Shown piece after piece: positions 37,718-63,964 of a DNA stretch of 64,000 nucleotides (position 1 is its first letter; each line of letters starts with the position of its first letter). The notes under the pieces are model-generated. The model saw only the letters and a program-made list of their open reading frames with translations. It was not told where the DNA came from and searched no databases. The translations under genes were made by a program, and so were the position numbers. Origin of the DNA: Dehalococcoidia bacterium (GTDB lineage Bacteria; Chloroflexota; Dehalococcoidia; SZUA-161; SpSt-899); assembly GCA_048539495.1 (NCBI GenBank), contig JBLYPS010000008.1:837-64836 (forward strand). The letters run 5' to 3'.

Positions 37718-37800
37718 GTTTTGAGTATTGAGTATCGAGTTTACAGGACGGGGTGGCCTCAAAACTCAGAACTCTAAACTCTTGACTCTTGACTCTTGAC
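37718..37800. repeat. family B palindromic element plus 4 tandem 'cttgact' heptamers (intergenic)
   Basis: gagttttgagtattgagtatcgagtttacaggacggggtggcctcaaaactcagaactctaaactcttgactcttgactcttgactcttgac. Confidence 0.85.
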
Positions 37801-39178: not shown

Positions 39179-39243
39179 CGAGTCCAGAGTCCAGAGTCAC
39201 GGGGAGGGGGACTCCAGACTCCAGACTCCAGACTCCAGACTAC
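39179..39243. repeat. family A palindromic element (intergenic)
   Basis: gagtccagagtccagagtcacggggagggggactccagactccagactccagactccagact. Confidence 0.85.
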
Positions 39244-47587: not shown

Positions 47588-47831
47588 CGTCTGCATCCTG
47601 CGGGGGGCCATCAAGGACATCGCCGACTTACCTAAGGAGTATGCCCGTTTGGCCAGCGAGCATATTGACCGCTTGCGGGAGAACCCTCGTCCGCCAGGTG
47701 CAAAGAAACTCCGAGGGACGACAGATTACAGTTTACGGGTGGGGGTGTATCGCATTCTCTACGACATAGATGATAGCCCTCGCATTGTCACCGTCTATCG
47801 AGTGAAACATCGGCGCGAAGCCTATCGCTGA
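47580..47831 (+). CDS. RelE/ParE-family type II toxin
   Basis: LPKEYARLASEHIDRLRENPRPPGAKKLRGTTDYSLRVGVYRILYDIDDSPRIVTVYRVKHRREAY is the RelE/ParE pattern. Confidence 0.8.
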   Translation: MYSVCILRGAIKDIADLPKEYARLASEHIDRLRENPRPPGAKKLRGTTDYSLRVGVYRILYDIDDSPRIVTVYRVKHRREAYR

Positions 47832-48161: not shown

Positions 48162-50501
48162 ATGACAAACGCGTCGGCTGACTATCTTGCCCACTCAGCA
48201 AACAAATATGGCAAGGTTGATCTCCTTCGTTCTCACCTCCAAAACGTTGCCAACCGCGCAGCCGAGTATGCCGAGACCTTCGGCGCTTCGGAGGAAGCCA
48301 GGCTGGCGGGTCTGCTGCACGATCTGGGGAAATATGGTGACTTGTTCCAGAGGCGACTTGAGGGGAAGGAAAGTGGGATTGATCACTGGTCGTCCGGAGC
48401 GTGGGAGGCTCTCACTAAACATCAGCAACGCGGAATTGCCATAGCCCTGGCAATCCAGGGACACCATGTCGGACTTCAGCATGCATCTGGAGATGCTCTA
48501 AGGGGCATTAATCCTGAGAAGCTGCAGGGATATCATTCGCTGGGCTTGCGACTCTCAGAGCCCGATACCAAGAAGCTGCTGCAACGGCTTGGTACGGACG
48601 GTCTGAACTTATCCCCAATCTCTTCCTCTCTTTATCCGGGGGTAAAGGAATCCTTCGAACAGAAAGAGACCGCTGCTGCCATGATGGATGTGCGGATGTT
48701 ATTCTCCACTTTGGTGGACGCTGACTTCATAGAAACTGAGGCCCATTTCCAGGAGGACTCGGATGGCAGTAAAGCTTACCGTGAGACAGGGCCTCTATTG
48801 AAACCCCAACAGACCCTGTTGCATCTCCTGGCCTACTTAAAAGAACTGGCAGTCGGTTCCGAAGCCGCCCCGCACGTGAATCAATTGCGCACACATCTAT
48901 TGCAGGCTTGTTTGGCCGCGGGAGACTTGCCGCAGGGGATTTTCACTCTTACGGCCCCGACAGGAACAGGAAAGACATTTAGCATGCTGGCCTTTGGCCT
49001 GCAACACGCGGTGAAACATGATCTTGAACGGATCATTATGGTGATTCCCTACCTGAGCATTATTGAGCAGACGGTGAGGGAGTATCGGAAAGCCCTCAAA
49101 AAATGCTTTGGTTCAGAGAGTATGCAATTCATTTTGGAGAATCACAGCCTTGCAGGCACCCGCGCCGGTGATGGGAGCGATAGCGGAAAAGAAGCCGACA
49201 TGGAGAACGAATCTCGCCGACGGGCACAGTTGCTCGCAGAGAACTGGGATGCCCCTATTGTTGTCACCACCAGTGTTCAATTGCTTGAGTCCCTGTTCGC
49301 CAATCGACCCTCGGCGTGTCGCAAACTGCATCGTCTGGCCAAGAGCGTCATTTTCTTTGATGAAGTGCAGACGCTTCCCGTATCGCTTGCTATCCCCACC
49401 CTGGCCACACTCTCCCGCCTGGCAGAACGATATGGCGCAACAGTGGTCTTCTCCACGGCCACACAGCCCGCTTTTGTGCATCTGAATGATCATGTAAGGG
49501 AATACTGCACTGGCGGTTGGGGAGCATCCGAAATTGTCCCCCCCCGGCTGAAGCTTTTCAGCAGGGCCAGGCGAACTTGTGTCGAATGGCCCGAGAATCT
49601 CAACCAGACGCTATCCTGGACAGCACTGGCCGAGCAGATTTCTCAGCACGAACGAAAGCAAGTCCTTTGCATTGTCAACCTGAAGACACACGCGCTCTTT
49701 CTGCATCAAAAGCTGGAGGAGCTCGGTGTTGAAGGGCTCTTTCATCTTTCCACCAATATGTGTCCGGCTCATCGACAGGATGCCCTGGAGCAAGTACGCC
49801 AGCAGCTGGATAAGAAACACCCATGTCATCTAATCTCCACTCAGTGTGTCGAGGCAGGGGTGGATGTGGATTTTCCGGTTGTCTATCGGGCATTCGGCCC
49901 ACTTGACGCAATTGCTCAAGCAGCCGGGCGCTGCAACCGTAATGGCCACGCCGAAACGGGCATCGTTTACGTGTTTTTACCGGAAGAAGAGAGATACCCC
50001 GACGGGGCATATGAGCAGGCTGCCGGCATCACGCGCTTTCTCCTGCAGAAGCATGGTAAGGCTGGGATGGATATCCACGACCCGGCGCTCTTTGCCGAGT
50101 ACTATCGGGAGCTTTATGACCTCATGCGCCCGGAGAACCAGAAAAAAGAACTTGCCGACGCTATCAAAGGACAGCACTTCATTGAGGTGGCAAGCCTGTA
50201 TCGAGTTATTGCCCGGGATGCCATAAATGTTCTCGTTCCCTACGATATTGATGCCTTTGCCAAACTCGGAGGTGAGGTTCGCCAAACCGGATTGAACGGC
50301 AAATGGATCGCCAAAGCGCGCCCCCACACCATAGGCTTGTTCAGGCCAAAGCTGTATGACCCGGTCAGTTCGTATCTTGACCGCATTCCCATTGGGAAGG
50401 GCAACTACTCAGAGGAATGGTATATCTATCTGAATGCCGAACATTATGATCAAACAAAAGGGCTTGTCCTGCCAACTTCAATGGAATTGCTGATTGGTTG
50501 A
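48162..50501 (+). CDS. cas3: CRISPR-associated helicase/nuclease Cas3 (HD domain plus SF2 helicase)
   Basis: N-terminal HD motifs (LLHDLGKYGDLFQ; H...D), Walker A APTGTGKT, a DEVQ box (FFDEVQ), and a helicase C-terminal domain. It is the first gene of a type I-C operon. Confidence 0.9.
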   Translation: MTNASADYLAHSANKYGKVDLLRSHLQNVANRAAEYAETFGASEEARLAGLLHDLGKYGDLFQRRLEGKESGIDHWSSGAWEALTKHQQRGIAIALAIQGHHVGLQHASGDALRGINPEKLQGYHSLGLRLSEPDTKKLLQRLGTDGLNLSPISSSLYPGVKESFEQKETAAAMMDVRMLFSTLVDADFIETEAHFQEDSDGSKAYRETGPLLKPQQTLLHLLAYLKELAVGSEAAPHVNQLRTHLLQACLAAGDLPQGIFTLTAPTGTGKTFSMLAFGLQHAVKHDLERIIMVIPYLSIIEQTVREYRKALKKCFGSESMQFILENHSLAGTRAGDGSDSGKEADMENESRRRAQLLAENWDAPIVVTTSVQLLESLFANRPSACRKLHRLAKSVIFFDEVQTLPVSLAIPTLATLSRLAERYGATVVFSTATQPAFVHLNDHVREYCTGGWGASEIVPPRLKLFSRARRTCVEWPENLNQTLSWTALAEQISQHERKQVLCIVNLKTHALFLHQKLEELGVEGLFHLSTNMCPAHRQDALEQVRQQLDKKHPCHLISTQCVEAGVDVDFPVVYRAFGPLDAIAQAAGRCNRNGHAETGIVYVFLPEEERYPDGAYEQAAGITRFLLQKHGKAGMDIHDPALFAEYYRELYDLMRPENQKKELADAIKGQHFIEVASLYRVIARDAINVLVPYDIDAFAKLGGEVRQTGLNGKWIAKARPHTIGLFRPKLYDPVSSYLDRIPIGKGNYSEEWYIYLNAEHYDQTKGLVLPTSMELLIG

Positions 50502-50615
50502 TGTCGGAGCGTGATGCCAGACTTTAGCTTCGCCAAAGCGACTCTCAGGGGCGCGCTACGAAAATCCAGGTTGGAGGAGGTGCTATGTATAAATAACCGA
50601 AGTTGAAACCAGGGT

Positions 50616-51395
50616 TTGCCAGTCAGAAAGGAGAAAGGAGGTTGTGTGAAACCGAAAGATCAGGTGCTGGAAGTGTGGGGCGATTTCGCCTGCTTTACCA
50701 GACCGGAACTCAAGGTGGAGCGATTCAGCTATCCGGTTATCACGCCCTCGGCCGCGCGAGGCATCTACGATGCTATCTACTGTAAACCCAACAGAGACCC
50801 CACGAAGGCTGAATTCCGCTGGCAGGTAACCAGGATAGAAATCCTGTCACCACCGCAATACATTGCCTTGCGTCGCAACGAAGTTAAGGACAAGGCCCCA
50901 GCGAAGGCTATCGTTACTTGGATGAGCGGCAAAAAACCACCGGAGCCCCTCTGGGCTGATGGCACCTCGGACATGCTGGGCACGGACCAGAAAGGACGCA
51001 CGCAGCGGCAGACGATGGCTCTGAAAGGCGTTCGGTATCATCTACACGCAGAGGTCCGACCCTGGCCTGGGTTCGAAGATCGGCTACAAGCAATAGAAAA
51101 TTGCTTCCGCCGTCGCGCTGCCACCGGCAAGTGCATCTACCAGCCTTACTTTGGCTGCCGCGAGTTCCCCGCCTATTTCAAGTTGGTCGAGCCGGATGCC
51201 CCTTCCGTGGAACGGGTACAGGATGACAGGGATATCGGTTGGATGCTCTACGACGTTTTCGATCTTTCCCAACCGGGGGGCTGTGATGATGAACCTTGCA
51301 TTAGCCTCTTTCGGGCAAAAGTCACCGAAGGGATACTGAAAGTGCCAGAATATGAAAGCGAGGCGGTGCTCAAGGGTGTGAGGAGGGAACGCTGA
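50616..51395 (+). CDS. cas5: Cas5c/Cas5d (type I-C)
   Basis: LEVWGDFACFTRPELKVERFSYPVITPSAARGIYDAIYCKP is the Cas5d signature. The start may be the GTG at about 50645. Confidence 0.85.
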   Translation: MPVRKEKGGCVKPKDQVLEVWGDFACFTRPELKVERFSYPVITPSAARGIYDAIYCKPNRDPTKAEFRWQVTRIEILSPPQYIALRRNEVKDKAPAKAIVTWMSGKKPPEPLWADGTSDMLGTDQKGRTQRQTMALKGVRYHLHAEVRPWPGFEDRLQAIENCFRRRAATGKCIYQPYFGCREFPAYFKLVEPDAPSVERVQDDRDIGWMLYDVFDLSQPGGCDDEPCISLFRAKVTEGILKVPEYESEAVLKGVRRER

Positions 51396-53281
51396 TGCTG
51401 GATATACTTGTAAGATACGCACATGATCGTGGGCTGGAGCCAGAACCGGGCTTTAAGGCCAAGGACGTCCGCTGGGCTATTGTCTGCGACGCTGATAGTC
51501 GATTTCTCAATGTTCTCCAACTGGGCGATACAAGTCAGAAGAACAATCCGGGACAAACGTTTCATAAATGCCCGGACCTCAGCCAACCAGAGATGGTGGC
51601 AGGTGGAGAGACGAAAAGCCACTTCCTGGTGGAGACCGCCGAAGTTGTGGCACTCTACGGAAAGAATGCCGTTAATCCCAAAGTCCGCGAACGCCACCAG
51701 TACTTCGTGAAGCTACATCAGGATGCGGGAACGTCCATGCCTGAGCTGGCCAGGCTGGCAGAGCAACTTGGCCAGCCGGAAACCATCGGTGCGATACGAT
51801 CACGATTCGAATCTCAGAAAGTCAAGCCCTCCGAAAAGGTGACATTTCGAATCGGAAGTGCCTATCCTGTAGAGTCTGATGCATGGCATGACTGGTGGCG
51901 TGAGTTCAGAAAAGGGCTGGCAGGAGGCAAATCCGAGGGAAAAGAAGGAGCTGCAAAGAAATCCGCACGGAACAAAGACGCGAGCGCCTTGATGCGCTGT
52001 TTTATCACCGGGGAATTGGTCGAACCGGTACCCACGCACTTGAAGATAGAGAAGCTCGCCGATGTCGGCGGCCAGCGCAGTGGCGACGCCCTGATCTGTT
52101 TTGACAAAGAGGCATTTCGTTCATATCGGTTGGAGCAATCTGCCAATGCAGCGATCTCGGAGCAATCCATGGCATCCTATTGCGCTGCGCTTAATCACCT
52201 CATAAAAAGGAGCGGTCGGCGTTTGGCCGGAGCCAAGGTTGTTCACTGGTTCAAGAGAAAGGATGTGCCAGAAGAAGACGATCCTATGGCATGGCTGGAG
52301 GAAGGAGCGGGGCAACAGGAGCTGAATGCCCAACGCCGGGCTGAAGAACTGCTTCAGAGCATCCAGACTGGAAAGCGCCCTGATCTGGCCAATAACTACT
52401 TCTACGCACTCACACTCTCCGGGGCAGCGGGGCGAGTGATGGTGCGTGACTGGATGGAGGGGCGATTTGAGGAGTTGGTGACAAACATCTGCGCCTGGTT
52501 TGATGATCTGGAGATTGTAAACTTATCCGGCGTGAAAAGTGCCAGGACCCCAGGCATTGAGCGTGTGATCACATGTCTTTTGCCGCTGAAAAAGAAAAAT
52601 CAGGAGTACAAGGACTGGATCAAACCGATTGGAGCAGAACGTCTGAGCCTTTGGCAGGCAGCTATTCGTGGACGTAAGACACCGATTTCTCACAGCGCAG
52701 TGTCGCGTGCAGTATTGTTGAATCGAGAGTTTTGCTTATCAGCAAAACTGGAGGAGGCTCTCCAAAGAAACGATGACCGAGCAAACACTCTGTCTTTGCT
52801 CTATGCCCGCATGGGCCTGATGAAGGCGTATCACCTTCGCAAAAACAGGGAAGGAGGAAGAGAAACGATGACATCGGAGTTAAAACCATACTTGAATGAG
52901 GATCACCCTCACCCCGCTTACCACTGCGGGAGGCTCATGGCCGTACTGGCCGCCCTCCAGCGCGCCGCACTGGGGGATATCGGTGCAGGTGTGGTCCAGC
53001 GTTATTATGCTGCTGCCAGCAGCACGCCGGCGCTGGTGTTAGGACGCCTGACTCGCACCAGCCAGTTCCATCTGAATAAACTGGAGCAGGGGCTGGCCTA
53101 TTGGTACGAGAGCAAAATTGCCCAGATCTGGAGCCGCATTAAGGACGGTATTCCTGGAACATTGAGTCTGGAAGAACAGAGTCTTTTTGCCCTGGGCTAC
53201 TACCAGCAGATTGCTCACATGAGAACAAAACGGTCGGATAAGTCCGAAAATCAACCCAAAGAGGAGGACAACAATGAGTAA
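51395..53281 (+). CDS. cas8c: Cas8c/Csd1 (type I-C large subunit)
   Basis: 628 aa, between cas5c and cas7c. Its position and size fit Csd1, and it overlaps the neighbouring genes by a few nt. Confidence 0.75.
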
Positions 53282-54290
53282 CCCAATCACAAATCGCTAC
53301 GAGTTTCTCTATCTGTTTGACTGCGAAAACGGCAATCCCAACGGTGATCCCGATGCCGGCAATGCCCCGCGCATCGATCCTCAGGACATGTGTGGGCTGG
53401 TCTCCGACGTTGCCCTGAAGCGGCGGGTGCGTAATTATATCCAGCTCGCCAGGGGCAATCAGATGCCCAACGCCATCTTCATCGAGCACGCGACCAATCT
53501 GAATCGCCCCATCGTCCGCGCTCACGAAGAGACCGAAGGTGGACTTAGCGAAACCCAAAAAGGTGCAGGCAAGAAAAAGGTCGAGTTGGCCCGAGAGTGG
53601 ATGTGCAAGAACTTCTATGACGTGCGTACTTTTGGGGCGGTGATGAGCACTGGCCCAAACGCCGGCCAGGTGCGTGGCCCGGTGCAGTTCGCTTTTGCCC
53701 GCTCCCTCGATCCTGTTCTACCTCTCGATATCTCCATTACACGGATGGCGATAGCGGAAAACGTAAGGGGGGCAAAATCAAGTGAAGACTATGCAAAATG
53801 GGAAGCTGAGCAACCTGAAGACTCGCTCCGCACGATGGGCCGCAAAGCCATGATTCCCTATGGGTTGTACGTAGCCAAGGGCTTTATCAGCGCCCATCTT
53901 GCCGAGGGAACTGGCTTTTCTGAAGGTGATCTGGACTTGTTTTGGAACGCATTGCTTGGAATGTACGAACATGACCGCTCGGCGAGTAAGGGCCTCATGT
54001 CGGTGCGCGAGCCGATCTTCGTCTTCCAGCACGTGGGGACCGACAGCGATGAAAGGCAGCGAGCCCGGCAATCCAAACTTGGCTGTGCGCCCGCACATAA
54101 GCTTTTTGATCTCGTGGAGATTCAAAAGCGTGAGGGAGTCGATGTCCCTCGGACCTTTGCAAATTACCGGATTATATTCCACAAGAGTCGATTGCCGAAT
54201 GGTGTACGGGCCGGCTTCATTGTCTCAGGTGATGGCGGAAAAGCAGATATCCGCTGGGACGAGCCTCCTGACTCAATACTGGAAGGGTGA
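53274..54290 (+). CDS. cas7: Cas7c/Csd2 (type I-C backbone subunit)
   Basis: [30 protein letters not shown]...[15 protein letters not shown] is the Csd2 N-terminal signature. Confidence 0.9.
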
Positions 54291-54523
54291 GTGGAATAAC
54301 AGGCGGGTAATACTGTCAAATGACGTCCACTATTTTTGACTGCCTCGACCTGGGTAGAGATTATACCCCTCGCCCTAGGGCCGTCAAGGGTAAAGGCTTT
54401 GCCCGATCTGAAGCTCGCCCTTGACAGCCCGGCGGGCTCGGGATAACGTTTCCAGTAACAAGTCGAGGCAAGTTTGCATCTTTTTGGAGTAGCAGTCATT
54501 TGACAGAATAGGTAATCGTAGTT

Positions 54524-55204
54524 ATGTATAGTGAAGATGAACTCCTGCCCATCTCCGCCCTTCAGCACTTGCTCTTCTGTGAGCGCCGGGCGGCTCTGGT
54601 TCACATTGAGGGTCTGTGGGATGAAAATCCTTTCACCGTAGAGGGACGCTACCTGCATGAGCGCACGCACGAGATAGGTACCGAGGTTCGCGGTGACCTG
54701 CGAATCGCACGCGGCCTGCGTCTGCGCTCGCTCCGGTTGGGACTTACGGGAAAGGCAGATGTGGTAGAGTTCTGCCGTCTGCCGGAAGGTCGGGCAGGGG
54801 TATCTTTCGTGAATGTGAGCGGCCTATGGAATCCTATTCCTGTGGAATACAAGCGAGGCAGACTCCGCCATGAAAGGGGTTACGAAGTCCAGCTCTGCGC
54901 TCAGGCCATATGCCTGGAGGAAATGATGAACGTCGAGGTAGGAGCTGGGGCAATTTACTATGGCAAGACTCGCCGCCGGCTTGAAATCACCTTTGACGAG
55001 AAGCTCCGCCGGGAAACGGAAAGAGCCGCTGAACGTCTACATGAACTATTGGCATCTGAAGGAACGCCCGGGGCCGTTCATGGGCCGAAATGCAAGAGCT
55101 GTTCACTGCTCGATCTCTGTATGCCCGGCCTCACCGGCAAGCGACGGAATGTACGGGGATATCTGTCAAAGGCCATCGCCGAGGCAGGAGAGGATAAATT
55201 ATGA
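54524..55204 (+). CDS. cas4: Cas4 (RecB-like nuclease, Fe-S)
   Basis: ISALQHLLFCERRAALVHIEGLWDENPFTVEGRYLHER, a DxK-type core, and a C-terminal Cys cluster (CKSCSLLDLC). Confidence 0.85.
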   Translation: MYSEDELLPISALQHLLFCERRAALVHIEGLWDENPFTVEGRYLHERTHEIGTEVRGDLRIARGLRLRSLRLGLTGKADVVEFCRLPEGRAGVSFVNVSGLWNPIPVEYKRGRLRHERGYEVQLCAQAICLEEMMNVEVGAGAIYYGKTRRRLEITFDEKLRRETERAAERLHELLASEGTPGAVHGPKCKSCSLLDLCMPGLTGKRRNVRGYLSKAIAEAGEDKL

Positions 55205-56232
55205 AACGCTTGCTCAATACGCTGTATGTTACTACTCAGGGCTCCTATCTGGCGCGGGAGGGCGAGACGGTGCTGGTCCGGGTTGGCGGAGAAACGAAGC
55301 TCCGCCTGCCGGTCCATACTCTGGGCAGCATTGTATGTTTCGGTCAGGTTTCCTGCAGTCCGCCGCTGATGGGACTGTGCGCCGAGCGCAACGTGGCGAT
55401 CTCCTTCCTCAGCGAGCGAGGGAGGTTTTTCGCCCGGGTCGAGGGACCCGTCTCGGGCAATGTGTTGTTGCGACGCGAGCAGTACCGCCGAGCGGACGAC
55501 CCCGAAGTCTCAGCCGAACTCGCCCGCGCGATGGTCATTGCCAAGATCGCCAATTGCCGGACGGTTCTTCTCAGAGCGGCTCGTGACCGGCCCGAGGACG
55601 AGGGTGCTGGGAAGCTATCAGAGGCAGCCGATCGTCTGGCACAACATCTCAAGAGTCTGGAGAACCCGGTGCCGCTTGATACTGTGCGTGGCAAGGAAGG
55701 GGATGCGGCACGGCGGTACTTTGATGTTTTTGACCACCTGATCACCAGCCAAAAGGAGAGTTTCTTTTTCCACGAGCGCAGCCGCCGTCCGCCGCTGGAT
55801 AATATGAATGCGCTTCTTTCATTCCTGTATACCCTGCTGGTTCATGACGTTGCCGCGGCGCTTGAGGGAGTGGGGCTCGATCCGGCGGTGGGATATCTGC
55901 ATCGGGATCGACCGGGACGCCCGGGACTTGCGCTCGATATAATGGAGGAATTCAGGCCTTATCTGGCAGACCGCCTGGCGCTGTCGCTCGTGAACCGGCA
56001 ACAGATCAAGGGAAAGGGGTTTCGGAGAACGGAAACGGGAGCCGTGCTCATGGATGATGCCACCCGTAAAGAAGTGCTTGTAGCTTATCAAAAGCGGAAA
56101 CAGGAGGAAATTCAGCACCCTTTCTTAGGAGAAAAGGTTGAAGTAGGACTCCTGCCACATGTGCAGGCACTGCTTCTGGCACGGCACTTACGGGGAGACC
56201 TGAATGGGTATCCACCGTTTTTCTGGAAATAG
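55201..56232 (+). CDS. cas1: Cas1 integrase
   Basis: LNTLYVTTQGSYLAREGETVLV... with the Cas1 metal-binding region. 343 aa; start overlaps the cas4 stop. Confidence 0.9.
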   Translation: MKRLLNTLYVTTQGSYLAREGETVLVRVGGETKLRLPVHTLGSIVCFGQVSCSPPLMGLCAERNVAISFLSERGRFFARVEGPVSGNVLLRREQYRRADDPEVSAELARAMVIAKIANCRTVLLRAARDRPEDEGAGKLSEAADRLAQHLKSLENPVPLDTVRGKEGDAARRYFDVFDHLITSQKESFFFHERSRRPPLDNMNALLSFLYTLLVHDVAAALEGVGLDPAVGYLHRDRPGRPGLALDIMEEFRPYLADRLALSLVNRQQIKGKGFRRTETGAVLMDDATRKEVLVAYQKRKQEEIQHPFLGEKVEVGLLPHVQALLLARHLRGDLNGYPPFFWK

Positions 56233-56338
56233 GTAAACCCGACCCGTGGCTTTGCGCAAGTGCCATGGGTAGCACATTAACAACTGGATATTGAAGGACA
56301 GCAGTTTGGGGTAAGAATCATGAAACGGAGAGAGCAAA

Positions 56339-56629
56339 ATGCTGGTTCTGGTAACCTATGATGTTAGCACAGAGTCGGAGGGGGGACAGAAAAGGCTGCG
56401 GCGTGTGGCCAAGATATGCAAAAACTACGGCCAGAGGGTGCAGAAGTCGGTCTTTGAATGTTTGGTGGATCCTGCCCAGTGGGCGGCAATGCGACAGCGT
56501 TTGATAGATGAAATCAAGACCGAAGAAGACAGCTTGCGCTTCTATTTTCTGGGGAAGAACTGGAAGAGAAGAGTGGAGCATGTGGGAGCCAATGCCGGTT
56601 ACGATCCCGAGGGGCCCCTGATTGTTTGA
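56339..56629 (+). CDS. cas2: Cas2
   Basis: MLVLVTYDVSTESEGGQKRLRRVAKICKNYGQRVQKSVFEC; 96 aa. Confidence 0.9.
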   Translation: MLVLVTYDVSTESEGGQKRLRRVAKICKNYGQRVQKSVFECLVDPAQWAAMRQRLIDEIKTEEDSLRFYFLGKNWKRRVEHVGANAGYDPEGPLIV

Positions 56630-56760
56630 AGTGCCTTTTGCGCCGACCCGGAGCGATCGCGGATCACGTGTGGGGTCCGCGAGCTTTGAGAGTTCCTTTT
56701 TCCAGTCGCTTAAGGGCGTGTTCGCGCAGCGGCATGGATTAAAACGTATCTGGAGATACG

Positions 56761-58516
56761 GTCGCCCCCCACGCGGGGGCGTGGATTGAAACACGTTTTG
56801 GGAATCTCGAATCGACGGACTCGATGAGTCGCCCCCCACGCGGGGGCGTGGATTGAAACATTTCATCGAGGGCTTCACGGCTCAGCATAGGATGTCGCCC
56901 CCCACGCGGGGGCGTGGATTGAAACTTAACATATCTATCTTTGTTGTCCCACTCTTCGAGTCGCCCCCCACGCGGGGGCGTGGATTGAAACCTGTACGTT
57001 AGTACGTTTTCAAGAAGAAATATGGCGTCGCCCCCCACGCGGGGGCGTGGATTGAAACCGTTTCACCTCGAACCAGAACTTTTCGAGTTGAGTCGCCCCC
57101 CACGCGGGGGCGTGGATTGAAACTATTAAACCTGAGGAAACTTTCCTCGATTGTATGTCGCCCCCCACGCGGGGGCGTGGATTGAAACTTTGAACTCGAT
57201 GCCAGACGCCTTGCCTGGTCATGTCGCCCCCCACGCGGGGGCGTGGATTGAAACTCCCTTGACACCGACCTAAACCATCCATAAGTCATGTCGCCCCCCA
57301 CGCGGGGGCGTGGATTGAAACATTGACACTTTCAGGATGAGCATTCCATTTCATAGTCGCCCCCCACGCGGGGGCGTGGATTGAAACGATTACATCTGCG
57401 GGAGAAGCGTCTCGCGATTGAAGTCGCCCCCCACGCGGGGGCGTGGATTGAAACGGATGAGCCGCACAACAAGGATAGCATTTATTACGTCGCCCCCCAC
57501 GCGGGGGCGTGGATTGAAACACTGAGGCCACTGCTACCAGAACGGCCGAAGCGGGTCGCCCCCCACGCGGGGGCGTGGATTGAAACAATCGGCCTGCCTG
57601 CCATAACATCCGCTTCGCTTAGTCGCCCCCCACGCGGGGGCGTGGATTGAAACAGGCGAGACACCGGCCACGGCAAATTGCGTTGCTGGTCGCCCCCCAC
57701 GCGGGGGCGTGGATTGAAACTCTGCCGATCCATTGCTGCCGTAACAGTATCCCAGTCGCCCCCCACGCGGGGGCGTGGATTGAAACAAGTCGACTGGGTA
57801 TGTGTTTATGAGCTGCAACGGTCGCCCCCCACGCGGGGGCGTGGATTGAAACTCGAAATAATTGAGCTTGTGCATTTGCAGTCCCTGTCGCCCCCCACGC
57901 GGGGGCGTGGATTGAAACCGATGTCCAACAACCTCTAAAAGTTCCCCTTGGGAAGTCGCCCCCCACGCGGGGGCGTGGATTGAAACTTGATATATTTTAC
58001 CTTTCGGATATTCTCAAGTCGCCCCCCACGCGGGGGCGTGGATTGAAACCACCTCCTGAAACCCAGCTGTAGACCAGATCTCGTCGCCCCCCACGCGGGG
58101 GCGTGGATTGAAACTAGGATAACCTCGGCAAGGCGGAAGCCATCAGTAGTCGCCCCCCACGCGGGGGCGTGGATTGAAACCGCTTGGATACCTACCATGT
58201 AAAACCACACTTCGGTCGCCCCCCACGCGGGGGCGTGGATTGAAACAATGTAGGTGAAGATGTTCCCGGGTGAATCGGTTGTTAGGTCGCCCCCCACGCG
58301 GGGGCGTGGATTGAAACGGTAGAAAAGCATGATGCGCTTACGGAGGCAGTTAGTCGCCCCCCACGCGGGGGCGTGGATTGAAACACAAGTGCTTGGGGAT
58401 GTGATATAATGGAGAAAAGTCGCCCCCCACGCGGGGGCGTGGATTGAAACAGAGACGTCGCTGCTGCGGACCTTCACGGTGTAGGTCACCCCCCACGCGG
58501 GGGCGTGGATTGAAAC
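56761..58516 (+). CRISPR. CRISPR array, 27 repeats of 32 bp (GTCGCCCCCCACGCGGGGGCGTGGATTGAAAC) with 26 unique spacers of 31-39 bp
   Basis: Repeat starts: 56761, 56828, 56894, 56960, 57027, 57092, 57157, 57223, 57290, 57356, 57423, 57489, 57555, 57622, 57689, 57755, 57821, 57887, 57955, 58018, 58083, 58149, 58215, 58286, 58353, 58419, 58485. The last repeat has a G>A change (gtcAcc...). The repeat ends in ATTGAAAC, the type I-C 5'-handle, so transcription is on the + strand with the leader on the cas2 side. A degenerate repeat-like sequence sits in the leader at 56703-56745. Confidence 0.95.
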
Positions 58517-58611
58517 ACTGACGAGGCCCGGTAGAACGACCGAGCTTGTCAGGGAAAGGCGAACAAGCGGGAATCACTCAGCCGATAGAAACAAAACAGC
58601 CTAAATAAAAA

Positions 58612-58893
58612 ATGGTCTCCACGGACGGCAACATGAAACCTCAAATAACGGATACTCCCCCTCAAATGCGGCAGGTGCTGATCCAAGGATATCGAAAAAT
58701 GACACCTCGGCAGAAGATGCAACGTGTCAATGAACTCAACAAGGCCGTTCAGCAGCTAGCATTGCTTCGCATCAGGAAGCAGTACGGAGAGATTTCAGAG
58801 AGAGAGCGGATGCTTCGTTTGGCAGCTCTCTGGTTAGATAGAGAAACTATGATGAAAGTCTTTGATTGGGATCCCCACAAAGAGGGCTATTGA
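58612..58893 (+). CDS. small hypothetical protein within the CRISPR array region
   Basis: 93 aa, basic/helical, immediately upstream of a nucleotidyltransferase. May be its cognate partner. Confidence 0.4.
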   Translation: MVSTDGNMKPQITDTPPQMRQVLIQGYRKMTPRQKMQRVNELNKAVQQLALLRIRKQYGEISERERMLRLAALWLDRETMMKVFDWDPHKEGY

Positions 58894-58895
58894 AC

Positions 58896-59489
58896 ATGGT
58901 TCTGCCGGAGCCTACTCGAATCACTCAACTCGTTGCTAATATACTTGATCGCCTCCAGATCCCATACTTCGTTGGCGGTTCGCTGGCGAGTTCCCTTCAC
59001 GGAATCCCCAGGGCAACTCAAGATGCCGACATAGTGGCAGACATCAAATCGGAGCACATTGTGCCATTTGTGGAAGCTCTCAGAACACAGTTCTACGTTG
59101 ACGAACAGATGATACGGGATGCAATTGAACGCCGTTCGTCATTCAATGTGATTCATCTTGAAACCATGTTCAAGGTCGACGTCTTTGTATTTCGCAACGA
59201 ACTTGGCCGTGAGGCAATGGCACGCAGAGAGAGATATCAGCTATCAGATCAGTCTGCGAGTTACATCTTTCTCGCGACTGCAGAAGACATCATTCTAAGC
59301 AAACTTCAATGGTTCCGATTGGGAGAAGGGACTTCAGAGCGACAATGGCTGGATGTGTTGGGGGTTTTGCAGGTTCAAGGTGATAGGCTGGATTTCCCGT
59401 ATCTTCAACGAATGGCTGGCCAAATGGGCGTACATGACCTTCTAAGGCAGGCGATTGAGGATGCTGCCATAGATACCAGAGATAACTGA
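58896..59489 (+). CDS. minimal nucleotidyltransferase (Pol-beta superfamily) family protein
   Basis: QIPYFVGGSLASSLHGIPRATQDADIV gives the GS-x(n)-DxD nucleotidyltransferase signature. The ORF track starts at 58866; Met at 58896 chosen. Confidence 0.55.
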   Translation: MVLPEPTRITQLVANILDRLQIPYFVGGSLASSLHGIPRATQDADIVADIKSEHIVPFVEALRTQFYVDEQMIRDAIERRSSFNVIHLETMFKVDVFVFRNELGREAMARRERYQLSDQSASYIFLATAEDIILSKLQWFRLGEGTSERQWLDVLGVLQVQGDRLDFPYLQRMAGQMGVHDLLRQAIEDAAIDTRDN

Positions 59490-59586
59490 CACTCCCCGAC
59501 GGGGATTAACTTGAAACATCCAACGGGCAAACGACTAATCCAGTGTAACCAGGCTCGGCCCAACAAGTCAAAGGACAGCAGTTTTC

Positions 59587-59618
59587 GTCGCCCCCCACGC
59601 GGGGGCGTGGATTGAAAC
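59587..59618 (+). CRISPR. orphan CRISPR repeat (perfect consensus copy) about 1.07 kb downstream of the array
   Basis: gtcgccccccacgcgggggcgtggattgaaac is identical to the array consensus. It lies between the nucleotidyltransferase gene and queA. Confidence 0.9.
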
Positions 59619-59625: not shown

Positions 59626-60651
59626 CTAAACTATCAGTGTGGCGTCACCGAAGCTGAGGAAACGGAACTTGTCCTGGATGGCGTGCTCGTAGGCCCGAAG
59701 AACGAAATCCTTTCCGGCGAAGGCGGAGACGAGCACGAGATGCGACGAGCGAGGAAGATGAAGGTTAGTGATGAGTCGGTCCACGACCTTGAAACGATAT
59801 CCCGGGGTGATAAAAAGCGAGGTCCAGTTGCAGCCGGGGCGGATCCTTCCGCTCTCATCAGCAACGCTCTCCAGCGCCCGCACCGCATCCGTCCCGCAAG
59901 CGATAATCTTCTTCCCCTCCGCTTTTGCCCGATTTACCGTCTCGGCCAATTCCGGGGGAACGCGGTGAAATTCAGGGGCGAGCCGATGTTCCTCGATGAA
60001 CTCCGTCCGTATGGATCTGAAGCTGGCGATGCCCATGTGAAGAGTGAAGAGTGCCAGCTTTATGCCCTTTTCCTCGACTCGCTGAAGCAGCTCAGTGGTA
60101 AAGTGAAGGGTGGCAGTGGGAGCAGCGGTGGAACCCCAATCCTGGGCCAGAACCGTCTGATAGCGTTCGGGGTCGGCAAGGGGCTCCTTGATATAAGGGG
60201 GCAGAGGGACCTCACCCCATTTTCCCATGGCGATGATTGCCGCTCCGGATGAAGGGAAGCAGACGATCCTTGTCCCCTCTGCGGTCCTTTCAAAGACCTT
60301 CACCTTCATCCCGTCTCCGAGGACTATCTCCGATCCCGGGGCAAGCCGGCCGCCCGGACGGACCAGGGCTTCCCATCTTCCCTCGCCCAGATCCCGCAAA
60401 AGAAATACCTCCGCCTTCCCGCCGGTTGGTTTACTGCCGTGTAGCCTTGCCATGATCACCCGGGTATCGTTCATCACCAGCACATCCCCCGGCTCCAGGT
60501 AGTTTATGATCTGCCTAAAGATTCCGCTGCTAACGGTCTTCATTCCCCGATCAAGGATCAAGAGCCGCGAGCTATCCCGGGGTTCAAGCGGCGTCTGGGC
60601 GATCAGTTCCTGAGGAAGATGGTAGTCGAAATCTTCTGTCTTCAGCCACAT
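59626..60651 (-). CDS. queA: S-adenosylmethionine:tRNA ribosyltransferase-isomerase
   Basis: MWLKTEDFDYHLPQELIAQTPLEPRDSSRLL is the QueA N-terminus. The ORF's first 18 codons lie in repeat element 60657-60700, so the Met at 60651 was chosen. Confidence 0.85.
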   Translation of the reverse strand: MWLKTEDFDYHLPQELIAQTPLEPRDSSRLLILDRGMKTVSSGIFRQIINYLEPGDVLVMNDTRVIMARLHGSKPTGGKAEVFLLRDLGEGRWEALVRPGGRLAPGSEIVLGDGMKVKVFERTAEGTRIVCFPSSGAAIIAMGKWGEVPLPPYIKEPLADPERYQTVLAQDWGSTAAPTATLHFTTELLQRVEEKGIKLALFTLHMGIASFRSIRTEFIEEHRLAPEFHRVPPELAETVNRAKAEGKKIIACGTDAVRALESVADESGRIRPGCNWTSLFITPGYRFKVVDRLITNLHLPRSSHLVLVSAFAGKDFVLRAYEHAIQDKFRFLSFGDATLIV

Positions 60652-60656
60652 AACGG

Positions 60657-60765
60657 TTGGAGTCGATAGTCGAGGGTCTGGAGTCTCCCGCCTTCCCTCC
60701 TGCATTCGGGGGCCAGGGGTCGGGGGTCAGGGATCAACCCCGCCCCCCGACCCCTGTCAACTGAG
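60657..60765. repeat. adjacent family A-like (60657-60700) and C-family (60700-60765) heptamer elements upstream of queA
   Basis: gagtcgatagtcgagggtctggagtctcccgcc... and ccaggggtcgggggtcagggatcaaccccgccccccgacccctgtcaactga. Confidence 0.75.
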
Positions 60766-60820
60766 CCCTGTAAACCAGTATGTTCCTCATGCTCGATTGA
60801 GCCCTAGCGATGAAAGAGGT

Positions 60821-61909
60821 TCACCGCTCCGCAGCGCTGTAGGGAACATTGACGGCGATGTTTACCATGCCTTCGTTCAGTACGGCGGCAACTAGAGCCA
60901 GCAGTCGCTTCATTCCCCAGCTCTTGGCCGCCGAAATTGGAATGACTCTGCCTATATTATCGCCCATCCGCTCTGCATAATAATCCACCGCATCCTCGCC
61001 GCCCAAGCCGATTTCATGGGCCAGCAAGTCGATCTTATTCATGGCGATGATCTTCGGTTTGTCGGCTAAACCTAATTCTTCAAGGAGGTTATCTACTGTC
61101 TGTGCCTGCTCGGCGGCATTTGCATGCGTGATGTCAACAACATGCAGCAATATATCGGCCTCGGACAGTTCCTCCAGGGTGGCCTTAAAAGACGCTACCA
61201 ACGTTGGGGGGAGCTTCTGGATAAAGCCCACGGTGTCGCTGAGGAGCACCTCCTGGTTATTGGGCAGGGCTACTCGACGGGTGGTGGTATCCAGAGTGGT
61301 GAAAAGCTTGTCTTCAACAAAGACCTCAGAGCGGCTGAGGGCATTAAACAAGGTACTCTTGCCCGCATTGGTATAGCCAACCAGGGCGACAACAGGGATG
61401 CCGGTGCTCGCCCGATGCCGGCGGTAACGGGCTCGATGTCTCCTTACCCCTTCGATCTCACCCTTGAGGTGCGATATTCGCCTCTCGATGATTCGGCGGT
61501 CGGATTCGAGCTGTTTTTCCCCCGGTCCTCGGGTGCCAATGCCACCGCCGAGACGTTCCAAGTGTGGCCAGAGGCCCGCCAGGCGAGGCAGGAGGTATTC
61601 GTGCTGGGCCAGCTCTACTTGAAGTCGTCCTTCGTGGGTTTGGGCACGCCTGGCAAAGATGTCCAGAATGAGTGCCGTGCGGTCGAGAACCTTTACTTCC
61701 AGGGCTCGATCTAGATTCCTCTGCTGGGCAGGTGTGAGTTCATTATCGAAGATAACCAGGTCGCTGCCGAGTTCAGTCTTCAGTGCAACCAGTTCTTCCA
61801 GCTTCCCCTTGCCGATCAGATGCGAAGAGCGCGGTCGATCTATGCGTTGCGTCACTGTCCCCACGACCTCGACTCCGGCGGTCTGTGCCAGCAGCACCAG
61901 CTCTGCCAT
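60821..61909 (-). CDS. hflX: GTPase HflX (N-terminus unresolved)
   Basis: G-domain motifs (GYTNAGKST, DTVGF, NKID), the HflX N-terminal domain and a C-terminal tail. The first ATG (61909) cuts off about 45 conserved codons (...EKAILVGIEV...). That upstream extension has no ATG/GTG/TTG before the stop at 62063-62065, which lies inside the repeat. Confidence 0.8.
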   Translation of the reverse strand: MAELVLLAQTAGVEVVGTVTQRIDRPRSSHLIGKGKLEELVALKTELGSDLVIFDNELTPAQQRNLDRALEVKVLDRTALILDIFARRAQTHEGRLQVELAQHEYLLPRLAGLWPHLERLGGGIGTRGPGEKQLESDRRIIERRISHLKGEIEGVRRHRARYRRHRASTGIPVVALVGYTNAGKSTLFNALSRSEVFVEDKLFTTLDTTTRRVALPNNQEVLLSDTVGFIQKLPPTLVASFKATLEELSEADILLHVVDITHANAAEQAQTVDNLLEELGLADKPKIIAMNKIDLLAHEIGLGGEDAVDYYAERMGDNIGRVIPISAAKSWGMKRLLALVAAVLNEGMVNIAVNVPYSAAER

Positions 61910-62025
61910 GGAATCGTCAAGCGACCATGAGTTCTGAGACCTCTTTACCTCTATCCCGACCAGGATCGCTTTCTCCGGTTGAGGTTTGGTGGAGATGGTT
62001 CCTTTAGGTATGTTGTCCTCCTTGG

Positions 62026-62110
62026 CAGTCGAGAGTCCAGAGTCAATGGTCGAGAGTCCCCCCTACCGCCCCTCTGGTAACTGGTGACTCTAGACTCCAG
62101 ACTCTAGACT
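62026..62110. repeat. family A palindromic element at the dapL / hflX junction
   Basis: gtcgagagtccagagtcaatggtcgagagtcccccctaccgcccctctggtaactggtgactctagactccagactctagactctcc. It encodes the dapL C-terminal tail (...ESRVWSLESPVTRGAVGGTLDH) and abuts the start of hflX. Confidence 0.85.
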
Positions 62111-63269
62111 CTCCGTGCCACTTCTCCAATCTGACGAGCCCCTCCTGAAGGCGGTCATCCGGCGTGGTCAGAGAGATTCTGATGTAGCCCTCACCGCAGG
62201 CGCCGTATCCCGTACCGGGCGTGACGACGATCCCGACCTCATCCAGAAGTTTAGCAGCGAACCCGGCTGATGTATAGCCTTCGGGGATTCGGGCCCAGAT
62301 ATAGAGGCTTGCCCTGGGCGGCTTTGCCTCGATGCCAATCTTGCCCAGCACCTCAATCACCAGATCTCGCCGCCGTTGATAGATAAGATTATGTTCCGGG
62401 ATACAATCCTGGGGCCCGCTGAAAGCCGCTATTGCGGCATGCTGGATAGCCTGGGGGATGCCGGAATCGAGATTCGACTTCATCCGCATCAGGGCATTGA
62501 TCATCTCTTCATTGCCCACCGCCATCCCGACGCGCCAGCCGGTCATGTTGTAGCTCTTAGAGAGGGAGTGGAATTCAACCCCGATATCCTTGGCCCCCAG
62601 TGCTTGCAGGAAGCTCACCGGACGATAGCCGTCGAAAGCCACCTCCGTATATGGGGCATCGTGGCAAACAGCCAGCTCATACTTCTTGGCGAAAGCGACC
62701 GCTCGCTCGAAGAAATCGAGATGCGCCACTGCAGAGGTGGGATTGTTGGGATAATTCAGCCACAGAACCCTGGCCTTAGCGGCGACATCTGAGGGAATCT
62801 TTCCCAGATCGGGCAGGAAACCGTTCTCCTCCATGAGAGGCAGATAGTAAGGCTCACCACCGGCGAGTATGGTGCTCATGGAGTAGACCGGATAGCTCGG
62901 ATCGGGAACAAGGGCAATGTCCCCGGGGTCAATGAGACAGAAGGACATGTGGCCGATGCCCTCTTTGGAACCGATGAGCGGCAGGATTTCCTTATTGGGG
63001 TCTAAGGTGAGTCCGAAGCGGTGCTGGTACCAATCGGCGATGGCACGTCGCAACTGGGGCAATCCGTCTATCTCCGGATACCGATGGTTGATAGGGTCGC
63101 GTGCCGCCTCGCAGAGACGCTCGATGACATGGGGCGGGGTGGAGAGGTCGGGGTCGCCGATGGCAAAGCTGATCACATCCTCACCGCGGGCACGCTTCTC
63201 GGCAATCTTCCGGCTTATCCCCACGAAAAGGTACGGTGGTAGTTTTTCAATTCGTTTGGCAGTTTGCAT
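62043..63269 (-). CDS. dapL: LL-diaminopimelate aminotransferase-like (DapL-type PLP aminotransferase)
   Basis: MQTAKRIEKLPPYLFVGISRKIAEKRARGEDVISFAIGDPDL...NYPNNPT...SLSKSYNMTGWRVG (PLP-Lys region) fits a class I aminotransferase of the DapL type. The start was chosen at the Met at 63269; the ORF extends to 63314. Confidence 0.75.
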   Translation of the reverse strand: MQTAKRIEKLPPYLFVGISRKIAEKRARGEDVISFAIGDPDLSTPPHVIERLCEAARDPINHRYPEIDGLPQLRRAIADWYQHRFGLTLDPNKEILPLIGSKEGIGHMSFCLIDPGDIALVPDPSYPVYSMSTILAGGEPYYLPLMEENGFLPDLGKIPSDVAAKARVLWLNYPNNPTSAVAHLDFFERAVAFAKKYELAVCHDAPYTEVAFDGYRPVSFLQALGAKDIGVEFHSLSKSYNMTGWRVGMAVGNEEMINALMRMKSNLDSGIPQAIQHAAIAAFSGPQDCIPEHNLIYQRRRDLVIEVLGKIGIEAKPPRASLYIWARIPEGYTSAGFAAKLLDEVGIVVTPGTGYGACGEGYIRISLTTPDDRLQEGLVRLEKWHGESRVWSLESPVTRGAVGGTLDH

Positions 63270-63291: not shown

Positions 63292-63543
63292 TTACCCCCC
63301 GAGTGCCCAAGCAAGATCCTCCATCATTGCCTCGTGCTGATGCTCAGCCAATTCTACCCAGTCAATGCCTACTGCCTCAACCGCTTTATCGCGGCCAATC
63401 TCGCCACGAAGATAACGGCCCAACATTCGCTCTCGCCACAATTGCCGGACACCGGACTGAAAGGCCATCGCCATCACTTCGGCCTCAGGCTTTTGAGTCT
63501 CACGGGCCAAGGTTTGCAGATAAGTCAGCACATCGTTCATCAT
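63292..63543 (-). CDS. UPF0175-family small protein
   Basis: 83 aa. ...AEVMAMAFQSGVRQLWRERMLGRYLRGEIGRDKAVEAVGIDWVELAEHQ... resembles UPF0175 (a putative antitoxin-like HTH). Confidence 0.45.
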   Translation of the reverse strand: MMNDVLTYLQTLARETQKPEAEVMAMAFQSGVRQLWRERMLGRYLRGEIGRDKAVEAVGIDWVELAEHQHEAMMEDLAWALGG

Positions 63544-63619
63544 TTGTCCCTCCGTTATTTACTCCACTCCCTCTCGAACACCATCTCAGCCGGGCCGCTG
63601 AGCCACACTTTCCCTCTCA

Positions 63620-63964
63620 TCAATCCAGACCCAAGATCACTTTCAGCGCTGTGGCTACCTTCTGGAGATTCTCTGTCCCGATGTTCCCAATTTTCCTTAC
63701 CAACCTTCTCTTATCAATAACCCTTATTTGCTCACACAAAAGCACTGAATCCTTAGCTAACCCACCAACCCCAGCGGGGATATTCACATGAGAGGGCAAA
63801 ATAGCTTCCTTTATCTTGGTTGTGAAGGGAACGATAATTGTATGCGGGCTCTTCTCATTTGCTCTATCTATTTGTATAATCAGTGCCGGCCTTATGCCTG
63901 ATTGCTCCGTGCCCACCACTGGATTCAAGTCTAGAAGAAATACATTGCCTCTCTTTACTTCCAA
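63620..63964 (-). CDS. mazF: MazF/PemK-family type II toxin (mRNA interferase)
   Basis: RGNVFLLDLNPVVGTEQSGIRPALIIQ...IIVPFTTK is the MazF/PemK signature. The cognate antitoxin would lie beyond the window end. Confidence 0.8.
   Translation of the reverse strand: MEVKRGNVFLLDLNPVVGTEQSGIRPALIIQIDRANEKSPHTIIVPFTTKIKEAILPSHVNIPAGVGGLAKDSVLLCEQIRVIDKRRLVRKIGNIGTENLQKVATALKVILGLD

Follow-up and report, generated by a model that had tools for sequence, protein, structure and literature searches.

A solitary CRISPR repeat between a putative MenAT1-like toxin–antitoxin cassette and queA, past the degenerate last repeat of a type I-C array from a Dehalococcoidia bacterium

Introduction

In CRISPR arrays a mutated repeat marks the end distal to the leader, and arrays can be interrupted by insertions. 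The described systems closest to the locus treated here include the pair MenAT1 of Mycobacterium tuberculosis, in which the MenT1 gene follows the gene of a 68-amino-acid (aa) antitoxin that has no DNA-binding domain (rv0078B-rv0078A; PMC10435456), and in which T39, D41, K137 and D152 are conserved or active-site residues of the toxin (PMC11375011). They also include the CRISPR-repressed protein toxin CreP (10.1101/2024.01.05.574328) and the solitary repeat units and Racr RNA anti-CRISPRs (PMC10651486). Our subject is a 64-kb stretch of contig JBLYPS010000008.1 from a Dehalococcoidia bacterium, called the window below and meaning the whole 64,000 nucleotides (nt), in which a type I-C array ends in a degenerate repeat, a two-gene cassette encoding a small helical protein and a nucleotidyltransferase follows, and one further, perfect copy of the repeat stands alone just ahead of the convergent gene queA. 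An earlier note on this DNA read the arrangement as the outcome of a duplication or recombination that had captured the cassette within or next to the array. The comparison with related genomes presented here argues for a different history, in which the array end probably came to abut an older toxin–antitoxin island and the solitary repeat is most likely a scar of recombination.

Results

A perfect repeat recurs beyond the degenerate array end

The + strand of the window carries 28 copies of the repeat GTCGCCCCCCACGCGGGGGCGTGGATTGAAAC (Table 1), and no match to it was found in any shuffled version of the window. A covariance model trained on 32 diverse I-C repeats recovered all 28 copies and scored repeat 27 at 48.1 bits, against 57.3 bits for a perfect repeat. 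Because the array is transcribed on the + strand, repeat 27 is its leader-distal end; the earlier note had drawn the same conclusion from the G>A change in this repeat, and both the repeat census and the model score bear it out. The note's second observation, that a perfect repeat returns about 1.07 kb farther on, also holds: spacers in the array measure 31-39 nt, and the interval between repeats 27 and 28, which we call slot 27, measures 1,070 nt.

The layout is a property of the genome and recurs in other contigs of its species. Repeat 28 is complete in six contigs of the same species (L001-L006) and runs off the contig end in three more (L007-L009). Two of these contigs, L002 and L003, carry the same G>A variant of repeat 27 and span repeats 25-27, the cassette, repeat 28 and queA; as they come from independent short-read assemblies and cross the whole junction, an assembly artefact is ruled out. 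In the sister strain represented by L002 we also observed a repeat variant with C>T at position 12 (143-174) and an extra spacer near the array end, which indicates that change at the array end is ongoing, with repeat 27, the cassette and repeat 28 remaining fixed.

The cassette beside queA in related genomes

In the related Dehalococcoidia metagenome-assembled genomes (MAGs) L010, L013, L175 and L011, the last with a truncated copy, the cassette adjoins queA without any CRISPR repeat, and repeat 28 is absent from L010, L011 and L013. The cassette proteins of these relatives are 86-91% identical in amino-acid sequence to those of the window. Between the window and L013 the two cassette genes are 87.6% and 91.3% identical at the nucleotide level, and the neighbouring housekeeping genes queA, hflX and an aminotransferase gene are 89.3%, 88.5% and 87.7% identical; at third codon positions the corresponding values are 76% and 84% for the cassette and 75-77% for the neighbours. 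These similar identities indicate that the cassette has co-diverged with queA, hflX and the aminotransferase gene.

The left side of the cassette preserves a second trace of the ancestral neighbourhood. In L013 and L010 the left side of the cassette is fused to mazE and a shortened mazF (mazF', a PemK_toxin fragment), and the window retains a decayed piece of the same fragment that aligns to L013 mazF' (9895-9963) with a score of 34, against 17.5 +/- 3.3 and a maximum of 32 in 1,000 shuffles. The remnant starts 12 nt past repeat 27, within the 87 nt that separate this repeat from the cassette. Synteny with the relatives is confined to 58604-59471 and 59626-63269, and nothing to the left of the mazF junction is syntenic with them. 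Since the mazF remnant lies between repeat 27 and the cassette, the array was probably joined to a pre-existing cassette and the cassette not captured from elsewhere; judged from these alignments, the mazF'-cassette-queA unit is probably older than its contact with the array. Capture of the cassette, as the earlier note had it, is not supported by this comparison, the outcome of which is largely the one that the note had named as refuting it: the two genes stand beside queA without repeats, and they have co-diverged with their neighbours. What stands of that proposal is that some rearrangement placed a repeat on each side of the cassette.

A wider association with CRISPR was considered for the cassette and rejected. 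Across 80 metagenome loci encoding cassette relatives (366 kb in total) there is no CRISPR array and there are no array-like repeats, and the cassette is not a CRISPR component.

Replacement of the spacer between cassette and queA

The similarity with L013 and L011 breaks off at 59471, where six codons of the nucleotidyltransferase gene are left before its stop, and picks up again at 59626. The relatives have 51 nt between cassette and queA, including a palindromic hairpin, and the window has 154 nt, made up of a 115-nt segment that we call region B, repeat 28 and 7 nt; region B and repeat 28 have replaced the ancestral 51-nt spacer. Two queA relatives (85% and 81% identity) have a dihydroorotase or an aminotransferase gene after queA instead, and in each related lineage the queA stop codon is the exact point where homology breaks, so that this junction is a rearrangement hotspot.

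Region B shows no similarity to the 51 nt of L013 (p = 0.5), and searches of the remaining window, about 180 fetched loci, plasmids and phages brought no match to it. It contains no match to the repeat model or to Rfam and no promoter-like site on the + strand. The possibility that it is a duplicated leader was rejected, as it has no similarity to the leader, to the cas7-cas4 spacer or to the region upstream of cas3. The alignment to the cas7-cas4 gap, a non-coding stretch of 233 nt (54291-54523), was likewise negative. A degenerate repeat at 59491-59518 (CCCCGACGGGG...CTTGAAAC) is suggestive by eye, and there the covariance model finds nothing at E <= 10.

Table 1. Coordinates of the features discussed; the final rows list direct repeats that flank the cassette in other loci
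Sequence	Feature	Coordinates	Strand	Basis or remark
Window	cas3	48162-50501	+	Cas3 domains above NCBIfam cut-offs
Window	cas5c	50616-51395	+	I-C-specific NCBIfam Cas5c model above curated cut-off
Window	cas8c	51395-53281	+	I-C-specific NCBIfam Cas8c/Csd1 model above curated cut-off
Window	cas7	53274-54290	+	I-C-specific NCBIfam Cas7/Csd2 model above curated cut-off
Window	cas4	54524-55204	+	NCBIfam Cas4 model passed
Window	cas1	55201-56232	+	I-C-specific NCBIfam Cas1c DVULG model above curated cut-off
Window	cas1-cas2 spacer	56233-56338	+	106 nt, unusually long; holds first 14-mer copy
Window	cas2	56339-56629	+	NCBIfam Cas2 model passed
Window	Leader	56630-56760	+	131 nt from cas2 stop to repeat 1
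Window	Repeats 1-26	56761-58450	+	All perfect, 25 spacers between
Window	Spacer 26	58451-58484	+	
Window	Repeat 27	58485-58516	+	Degenerate terminal repeat, G>A at position 4
Window	mazF 5' fragment	58529-58598	+	Decayed remnant, ancestral left flank of cassette; local alignment
Window	86-aa all-helical protein, putative antitoxin	58633-58893	+	Homologues, AF2 model
Window	197-aa MenT1-like nucleotidyltransferase, putative toxin	58896-59489	+	Fold, profile, conserved residues
Window	Region B	59472-59586	+	115 nt: last 6 nucleotidyltransferase codons plus 97 nt; holds second 14-mer copy
Window	Repeat 28	59587-59618	+	Solitary, perfect; 7 nt from queA stop codon
Window	queA	59626-60705	-	Convergent with cassette; conserved synteny begins (queA, hflX, aminotransferase)
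Window	Heptamer blocks	~14540-14620, 14840-14900, 20756-20830, 29289-29360, 32862-32940, 37778-37800, 39186-39240, 62032-62100		
L134	Flanking direct repeats	178-237 / 1353-1411		ychF 3' end
L135	Flanking direct repeats	177-217 / 1155-1195		ychF 3' end
L129	Flanking direct repeats	2704-2787 / 3820-3903		DUF35-like gene 3' end
L146	Flanking direct repeats	1068-1109 / 2001-2042		DUF1156-like gene 5' end
L174	Flanking direct repeats	4-73 / 1036-1105		3' end of neighbouring gene, no name assigned
L107	Flanking direct repeats	429-501 / 1492-1564		Not coding
L108	Flanking direct repeats	5584-5662 / 6651-6728		Not coding

Direct repeats around the cassette in other genomes

Locus-specific direct repeats flank the cassette in 8 of 47 testable loci, the window included (z > 12). 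In the window the flanking repeat is the CRISPR repeat itself, which like the repeats of L107 and L108 is not coding; in the seven other loci the repeats measure 41-84 nt, and in five of them (L129, L134, L135, L146 and L174) they are duplicated ends of a neighbouring gene. All seven differences between the repeat copies of L174 and L146 are synonymous, so that the copies look like two alleles joined by recombination and not like a decayed target duplication. No conserved cassette termini are visible across the loci flanked by direct repeats. Together these features suggest that the cassette has spread by one-sided (homology-facilitated illegitimate) recombination and not by transposition. A cassette moving in this way would enter with a piece of its old neighbour as a homologous anchor, and the anchor end would become duplicated. 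Duplicated neighbour ends that differ only at synonymous sites are a clear signature of one-sided homologous recombination.

Gene pairs of toxin–antitoxin or similar kind also stand at repeat boundaries in another I-C array and in a variant strain of the window's species. At the distal end of the array in an Elusimicrobia MAG (L091, 14444-17700), HepT-MntA and XRE-IrrE genes follow the last perfect repeat, then comes a repeat with its last four bases changed, an MntA-HepT pair begins 12 nt later, and a further degenerate repeat stands 4 nt after that pair, followed by a PIN toxin. In the variant strain (L007, 1-1829; Logan DRR093104) an extra DUF6883-DUF4926 pair lies between the repeat and the mazF remnant, with the junction reading GAAAC and then AATTGAAATGATTGAAAC...; contigs L001, L004 and L005 break at this polymorphic point.

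A MenT1-like nucleotidyltransferase and its helical partner

The second cassette gene encodes a member of a family with more than 2,700 homologues over many phyla, none of which carries a precomputed Pfam domain. Its AlphaFold (AF2) model has a predicted local distance difference test score (pLDDT) of 91.5, and the best fold matches of this model are M. tuberculosis MenT1 structures (8an4, 8an5 and 8rr5; E ~1e-7, template modelling score up to 0.69), with other small nucleotidyltransferases ranking after them. The family profile, searched against all sequences of the Protein Data Bank (PDB), also returned MenT1 first (E = 7e-4). Residues G28, S29, T41, D45, K136 and D153 are invariant in the family and D43 is nearly so; the GGS motif (27-29) and T41-Q-D43-x-D45 are conserved, and the protein has the Pol-beta nucleotidyltransferase fold with motifs I and II, so the G-S...DxD motif reported in the earlier note is both present and maintained. 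K136 and D153 fall near the positions of MenT1 K137 and D152 and are presumably equivalent to them, the MenT1 profile alignment covering residues 11-79 only. T41, D43, K136 and D153 are probable counterparts of MenT1 T39, D41, K137 and D152, with an explicit alignment for the T/D part only.

Assignment to other nucleotidyltransferase classes fared less well. The AbiEii model (PF08843, DUF1814) scores 14.6 bits against a gathering cut-off of 22.5 (E = 0.03), below threshold, and similarly weak matches occur in 18 of 31 family members, the best at E = 8.5e-4; NTP_transf_2 and Polbeta gave no match. A HEPN/MNT (HepT-MntA) identity was rejected, as there is no HEPN partner and the protein has 197 aa against about 100-130 aa for a minimal MNT. 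AbiE was rejected as well, since the AbiEi winged helix-turn-helix antitoxin was not found and the partner, of 86 aa, has no match in Pfam, NCBIfam or PADLOC, and the absence of any PADLOC match for either protein speaks against cyclic-oligonucleotide-based antiphage signalling systems (CBASS) and other catalogued defence nucleotidyltransferases. The suggestion of an AbiEii-like or MNT-like enzyme is thus upheld for the toxin-type fold and the sub-threshold AbiEii similarity, and not for MNT/HEPN; the searches of AbiE, MNT-HEPN and CBASS profiles proposed with it leave a nucleotidyltransferase of toxin type with MenT1 nearest and no match to MNT/HEPN or CBASS.

The first gene was described in the earlier note as encoding 93 aa. 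The open reading frame exists, and its homologues place the start at M8 (position 58633), giving 86 aa, the length of nearly all of 246 homologues, which are mostly 65-88% identical. In 48 of the 80 metagenome loci the small gene is the immediate upstream neighbour of the nucleotidyltransferase gene. Its product is predicted to be all-helical (AF2 model, pLDDT 89). Searches of Pfam, NCBIfam, PADLOC and the sequences and folds of the PDB returned nothing for this protein, which does not detectably resemble MenA1 or a solved structure of any other kind and has neither a HepT match nor an Rx4-6H motif. From sequence and modelled structure we take the two genes to be a putative autonomous toxin–antitoxin module of the MenAT1 kind. 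By analogy with that system, the toxin would halt growth and translation through nucleotide addition at tRNA 3' CCA ends, the 86-aa partner would neutralise it by binding, and the partner might perhaps also induce auto-phosphorylation of the conserved Thr41.

A 14-mer shared with the cas1-cas2 spacer

The duplication proposed in the earlier note rested on a 14-mer, AAGGACAGCAGTTT, found both upstream of cas2 and directly ahead of repeat 28. Both copies exist, at 56294-56307 and 59571-59584, one position away from where the note had placed them. Exact direct pairs of at least 14 nt that look like chance number about 12 in the 64-kb window against 7.6 expected, tandem repeats being set aside, so the 14-mer is unremarkable on its own, and the match does not extend in local alignment. 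The spacer that holds the first copy is itself of unusual length, with 106 nt in the window, 68 nt in L014 (11033-11100) and 92 nt in L015 (11033-11124), against 4-12 nt in most I-C loci. The three Chloroflexota spacers share the motif GCACMTTAACAACTGRA after a hairpin, and the 14-mer is not present in the long spacers of L014 and L015. The I-C repeat covariance model detects no repeat-like element in the window's cas1-cas2 spacer, including the sequence ctggatattgaa near cas2 that had been called repeat-like, and no Rfam family matches it; its candidacy as a structured RNA was dropped after folding gave z = -0.1 and no consensus pairs. At chance level for 64 kb and missing from L014 and L015, the related I-C loci, the 14-mer gives no support to a duplication; we regard it as a product of chance, or of a short templated patch at the most.

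The type I-C locus and other repeats of the window

The array belongs to a complete cas operon on the + strand (48162-56629), all seven proteins of which pass the relevant models. NCBIfam signatures of Cas8c/Csd1, Cas7/Csd2 and Cas5c, with no Cas6, identify it as type I-C (Dvulg), and the 32-nt repeat is in keeping with this, with a GC hairpin, a ATTGAAAC 3' end and a position downstream of cas2; it matches the I-C repeats of Nitratidesulfovibrio vulgaris plasmids letter for letter. The leader contains a weak match to the repeat model at 56705-56745 (11 bits, E 0.35), and Rfam returned nothing beyond CRISPR-DR matches. The flanks of the locus do not align with those of its closest Cas1 relatives, with which the cas genes alone align at about 70% nucleotide identity, and vertical sharing of the locus with these relatives was rejected on that ground.

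Some further elements lie near the locus or elsewhere in the window. A RelB/Phd-like and ParE pair lies directly upstream of cas3 (47366-47831), and an open reading frame of 83 aa with a full MazF/PemK gene lies beyond the aminotransferase gene (63292-63964), where relatives have dapF. Intergenic blocks of tandem heptamers (GAGTCGA, GACTCCA, GACTCTC and similar) form inverted arms around G/C-rich cores and constitute a family of hairpin elements, built from 7-nt units, that resemble repetitive extragenic palindromic sequences. A repeat of 27-35 nt, AGTTTTGAGTATTGAGTATCGAGTTTAGAGGAGGG, occurs three times (30257-30291, 30698-30732 and 37717-37743), each copy near partner repeats (TCAGAACTCTAAACTC).

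Discussion

An array end probably joined to an older toxin–antitoxin island

The anatomy of the locus is probably best understood as an array trailer that abuts an older toxin–antitoxin island, with repeat 28 left behind by recombination. In this history the toxin–antitoxin module and the mazF fragment upstream of it would predate the arrival of CRISPR-Cas beside queA; the array end, repeat 27, would have joined within the 5' part of mazF, at about codon 10; and a second, separate illegitimate or one-sided recombination would have replaced the 51-nt spacer between cassette and queA with repeat 28 and the 115 nt of region B. At least two events, the juxtaposition of array and mazF' and the exchange of the 3' flank for a segment with one repeat, are needed to lead from the ancestral to the present state. 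Single-step models worked through on paper (plasmid integration, tandem duplication with deletion, and unequal crossover) do not yield the observed order without extra events. By analogy with the duplicated neighbour ends at other cassette loci, the mechanism we would prefer for the second event is the joining of donor and resident copies of the array end within one population, repeat 27 with its trailer (mazF', cassette and region B) and repeat 28 being those copies. Repeat 28 is most likely a recombination scar, although read-through of the array transcript, should it occur, could still expose both repeat 27 and repeat 28 to cleavage by Cas5c. Should this history be correct, the locus is an ordinary array trailer beside a toxin–antitoxin island, and orphan repeats past a degenerate array end are, without comparative data, no evidence of capture or of function.

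Several observations weigh against this history. The duplication comprises the 32 nt of the CRISPR repeat and nothing else, cleanly bounded at either end, which is what spacer-type integration or insertion between existing repeats is expected to leave, and the duplications at other cassette loci measure 41-84 nt, not 32. The scenario requires two events at minimum, and searches of loci, plasmids and phages did not find a source of region B. The comparison covers two cassette-bearing lineages with no cassette-bearing outgroup, and we infer the order of events from the fact that mazE-mazF' is intact in lineage A and a truncated remnant in the window. Finally, the DUF6883-DUF4926 pair of L007 starts exactly at a repeat 3' end and the MntA-HepT pair of L091 fills a spacer slot to within 12 + 4 nt, both of which hint at a process specific to repeat boundaries.

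Competing explanations

The repeat-boundary observations are the strength of an explanation in which mazF remnant, cassette and region B were integrated together, as one segment of 1,070 nt, between two repeat copies, either by Cas1-Cas2(-Cas4) acting on a long DNA as on a giant spacer or by repeat-repeat recombination of a circular intermediate carrying a repeat and the cassette, so that I-C arrays would act as landing or capture platforms for toxin–antitoxin cassettes. Each junction coincides exactly with a repeat boundary and precisely one repeat is duplicated, as this explanation predicts; L091 places MntA-HepT between degenerate repeats with 12 + 4 nt of slack and HepT-MntA plus XRE-IrrE in the preceding slot, and the pair of L007 begins at a repeat 3' end. 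The content of the slot, however, is the ancestral queA neighbourhood including the mazF pseudogene, co-diverged with queA, and for an array also to adjoin queA by coincidence would take extra events. Among the other I-C arrays whose distal ends are complete, about 22 in number, the pattern recurs in one; an array on a Leptolinea plasmid is contiguous and lacks it, and the cassette has no CRISPR association in 80 loci. Inserts made by Cas1-Cas2 normally measure about 35 bp, far from the length of this segment. We therefore regard capture as unlikely. The version set out in the earlier note, in which duplication or recombination of the cas1-cas2 spacer made the sequence before repeat 28 and captured the cassette, is far less probable still and is already largely refuted. 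It draws on an exact 14-mer shared by two non-coding stretches of about 100 nt in one locus, which was seen in 0 of 500 shuffles of just these two stretches and which repair of a junction could have left as a short templated patch; set against this are the roughly 12 comparable chance pairs where 7.6 are expected, a match that does not extend, its absence from the long spacers in L014 and L015, and the failure to detect a repeat-like element near cas2 or at 59491-59518. The 14-mer moreover follows the supposed repeat end at one site and precedes the repeat at the other, which does not fit a shared spacer.

A functional rather than historical account would have the array transcript read through into the cassette, where Cas5c would cut repeats 27 and 28 and release a defined toxin–antitoxin mRNA with a protective 3' hairpin, or where repeat 28 would serve as a terminator or insulator towards the convergent queA; in either variant the cassette would be an addiction device that keeps the CRISPR-Cas locus stable, with an effect like that of CreTA. 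Consistent with such coupling, no terminator-like site separates repeat 27 from the cassette, no promoter-like site was found on the + strand upstream of the cassette, repeat 28 stands in place of the palindromic hairpin of L013, the arrangement is kept in 9 of 9 contigs of the species, RelB/ParE and MazEF modules also flank the locus, and CreP shows that CRISPR-repressed protein toxins exist (10.1101/2024.01.05.574328). Yet no spacer or pseudo-spacer has a TTC-plus-seed match in the window, hence there is no CreA-like guide; the cassette works without a CRISPR context in relatives and in 80 other loci; and conservation among near-identical strains says little. We consider coupling of this kind quite improbable. 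The two toxin–antitoxin pairs sited in slots, those of the window and of L091, do not prove a mechanism, and they leave room for capture or for function. A more general proposition, that I-C arrays at least hold toxin–antitoxin cassettes in slots, bracketed there by the action of Cas1-Cas2 on long DNA or by recombination between repeats, from which they are co-transcribed and cut out by Cas5c, with the window and L091 as independent instances, strikes us as distinctly doubtful. Were it true, arrays and Cas1-Cas2 would have a new role, akin to that of integrons in capturing and mobilising cassettes, and an addiction module would be tied to an immune locus.

Comparison with known systems

Among interrupted arrays, the locus resembles those with a degenerate end repeat and extra DNA between repeats of one array, but the DNA between the repeats is an older chromosomal neighbourhood, made up of the mazF remnant and the toxin–antitoxin pair, and not an insertion sequence or another mobile element from outside, and the far repeat is perfect. 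The HepT-MntA arrangement of L091 likewise has a toxin–antitoxin pair that contains a nucleotidyltransferase between I-C repeats at the distal array end. There the nucleotidyltransferase is the antitoxin and HEPN the toxin, whereas the window pair has no HEPN and its nucleotidyltransferase is of the MenT/AbiEii toxin type.

The CRISPR-repressed toxins CreTA and CreP, which guard cas loci, share with the window a toxin module within a CRISPR-Cas locus near repeats. They differ in that the window has neither a guide of the pseudo-repeat/pseudo-spacer/pseudo-repeat form nor a partial target flanked by a protospacer-adjacent motif, and in that its putative toxin has its own protein antitoxin and is widespread without CRISPR. 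A CreTA/CreR-like guide was searched for and rejected, as the repeat model finds no degenerate repeats of that kind and the window contains no TTC followed by a 12-nt seed match with at most one mismatch. With the Racr anti-CRISPRs (PMC10651486) the locus shares a single cognate repeat outside an array, but repeat 28 is chromosomal, neighbours the array to which it is cognate and is preceded by no promoter-like site. Classification as a solitary repeat unit or Racr was rejected on the chromosomal position, the absence of a + strand promoter-like site and the absence of a phage or plasmid match for region B.

The closest counterpart of the cassette itself is MenAT1 (Rv0078B-Rv0078A) of M. tuberculosis. 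The window protein is only about 20% identical to MenT1 and stays below the Pfam AbiEii/DUF1814 cut-off, and its 86-aa partner shows no detectable similarity to MenA1; the two systems nevertheless share a gene order in which the gene of a small helical partner that does not bind DNA precedes that of the nucleotidyltransferase, a protein of about 195 aa. MenT1 is the best match of the window protein by both fold and profile, with the probable counterparts of T39, D41, K137 and D152 conserved, so that a large unannotated family can now be read as putative MenT1-like toxins with a new helical partner.

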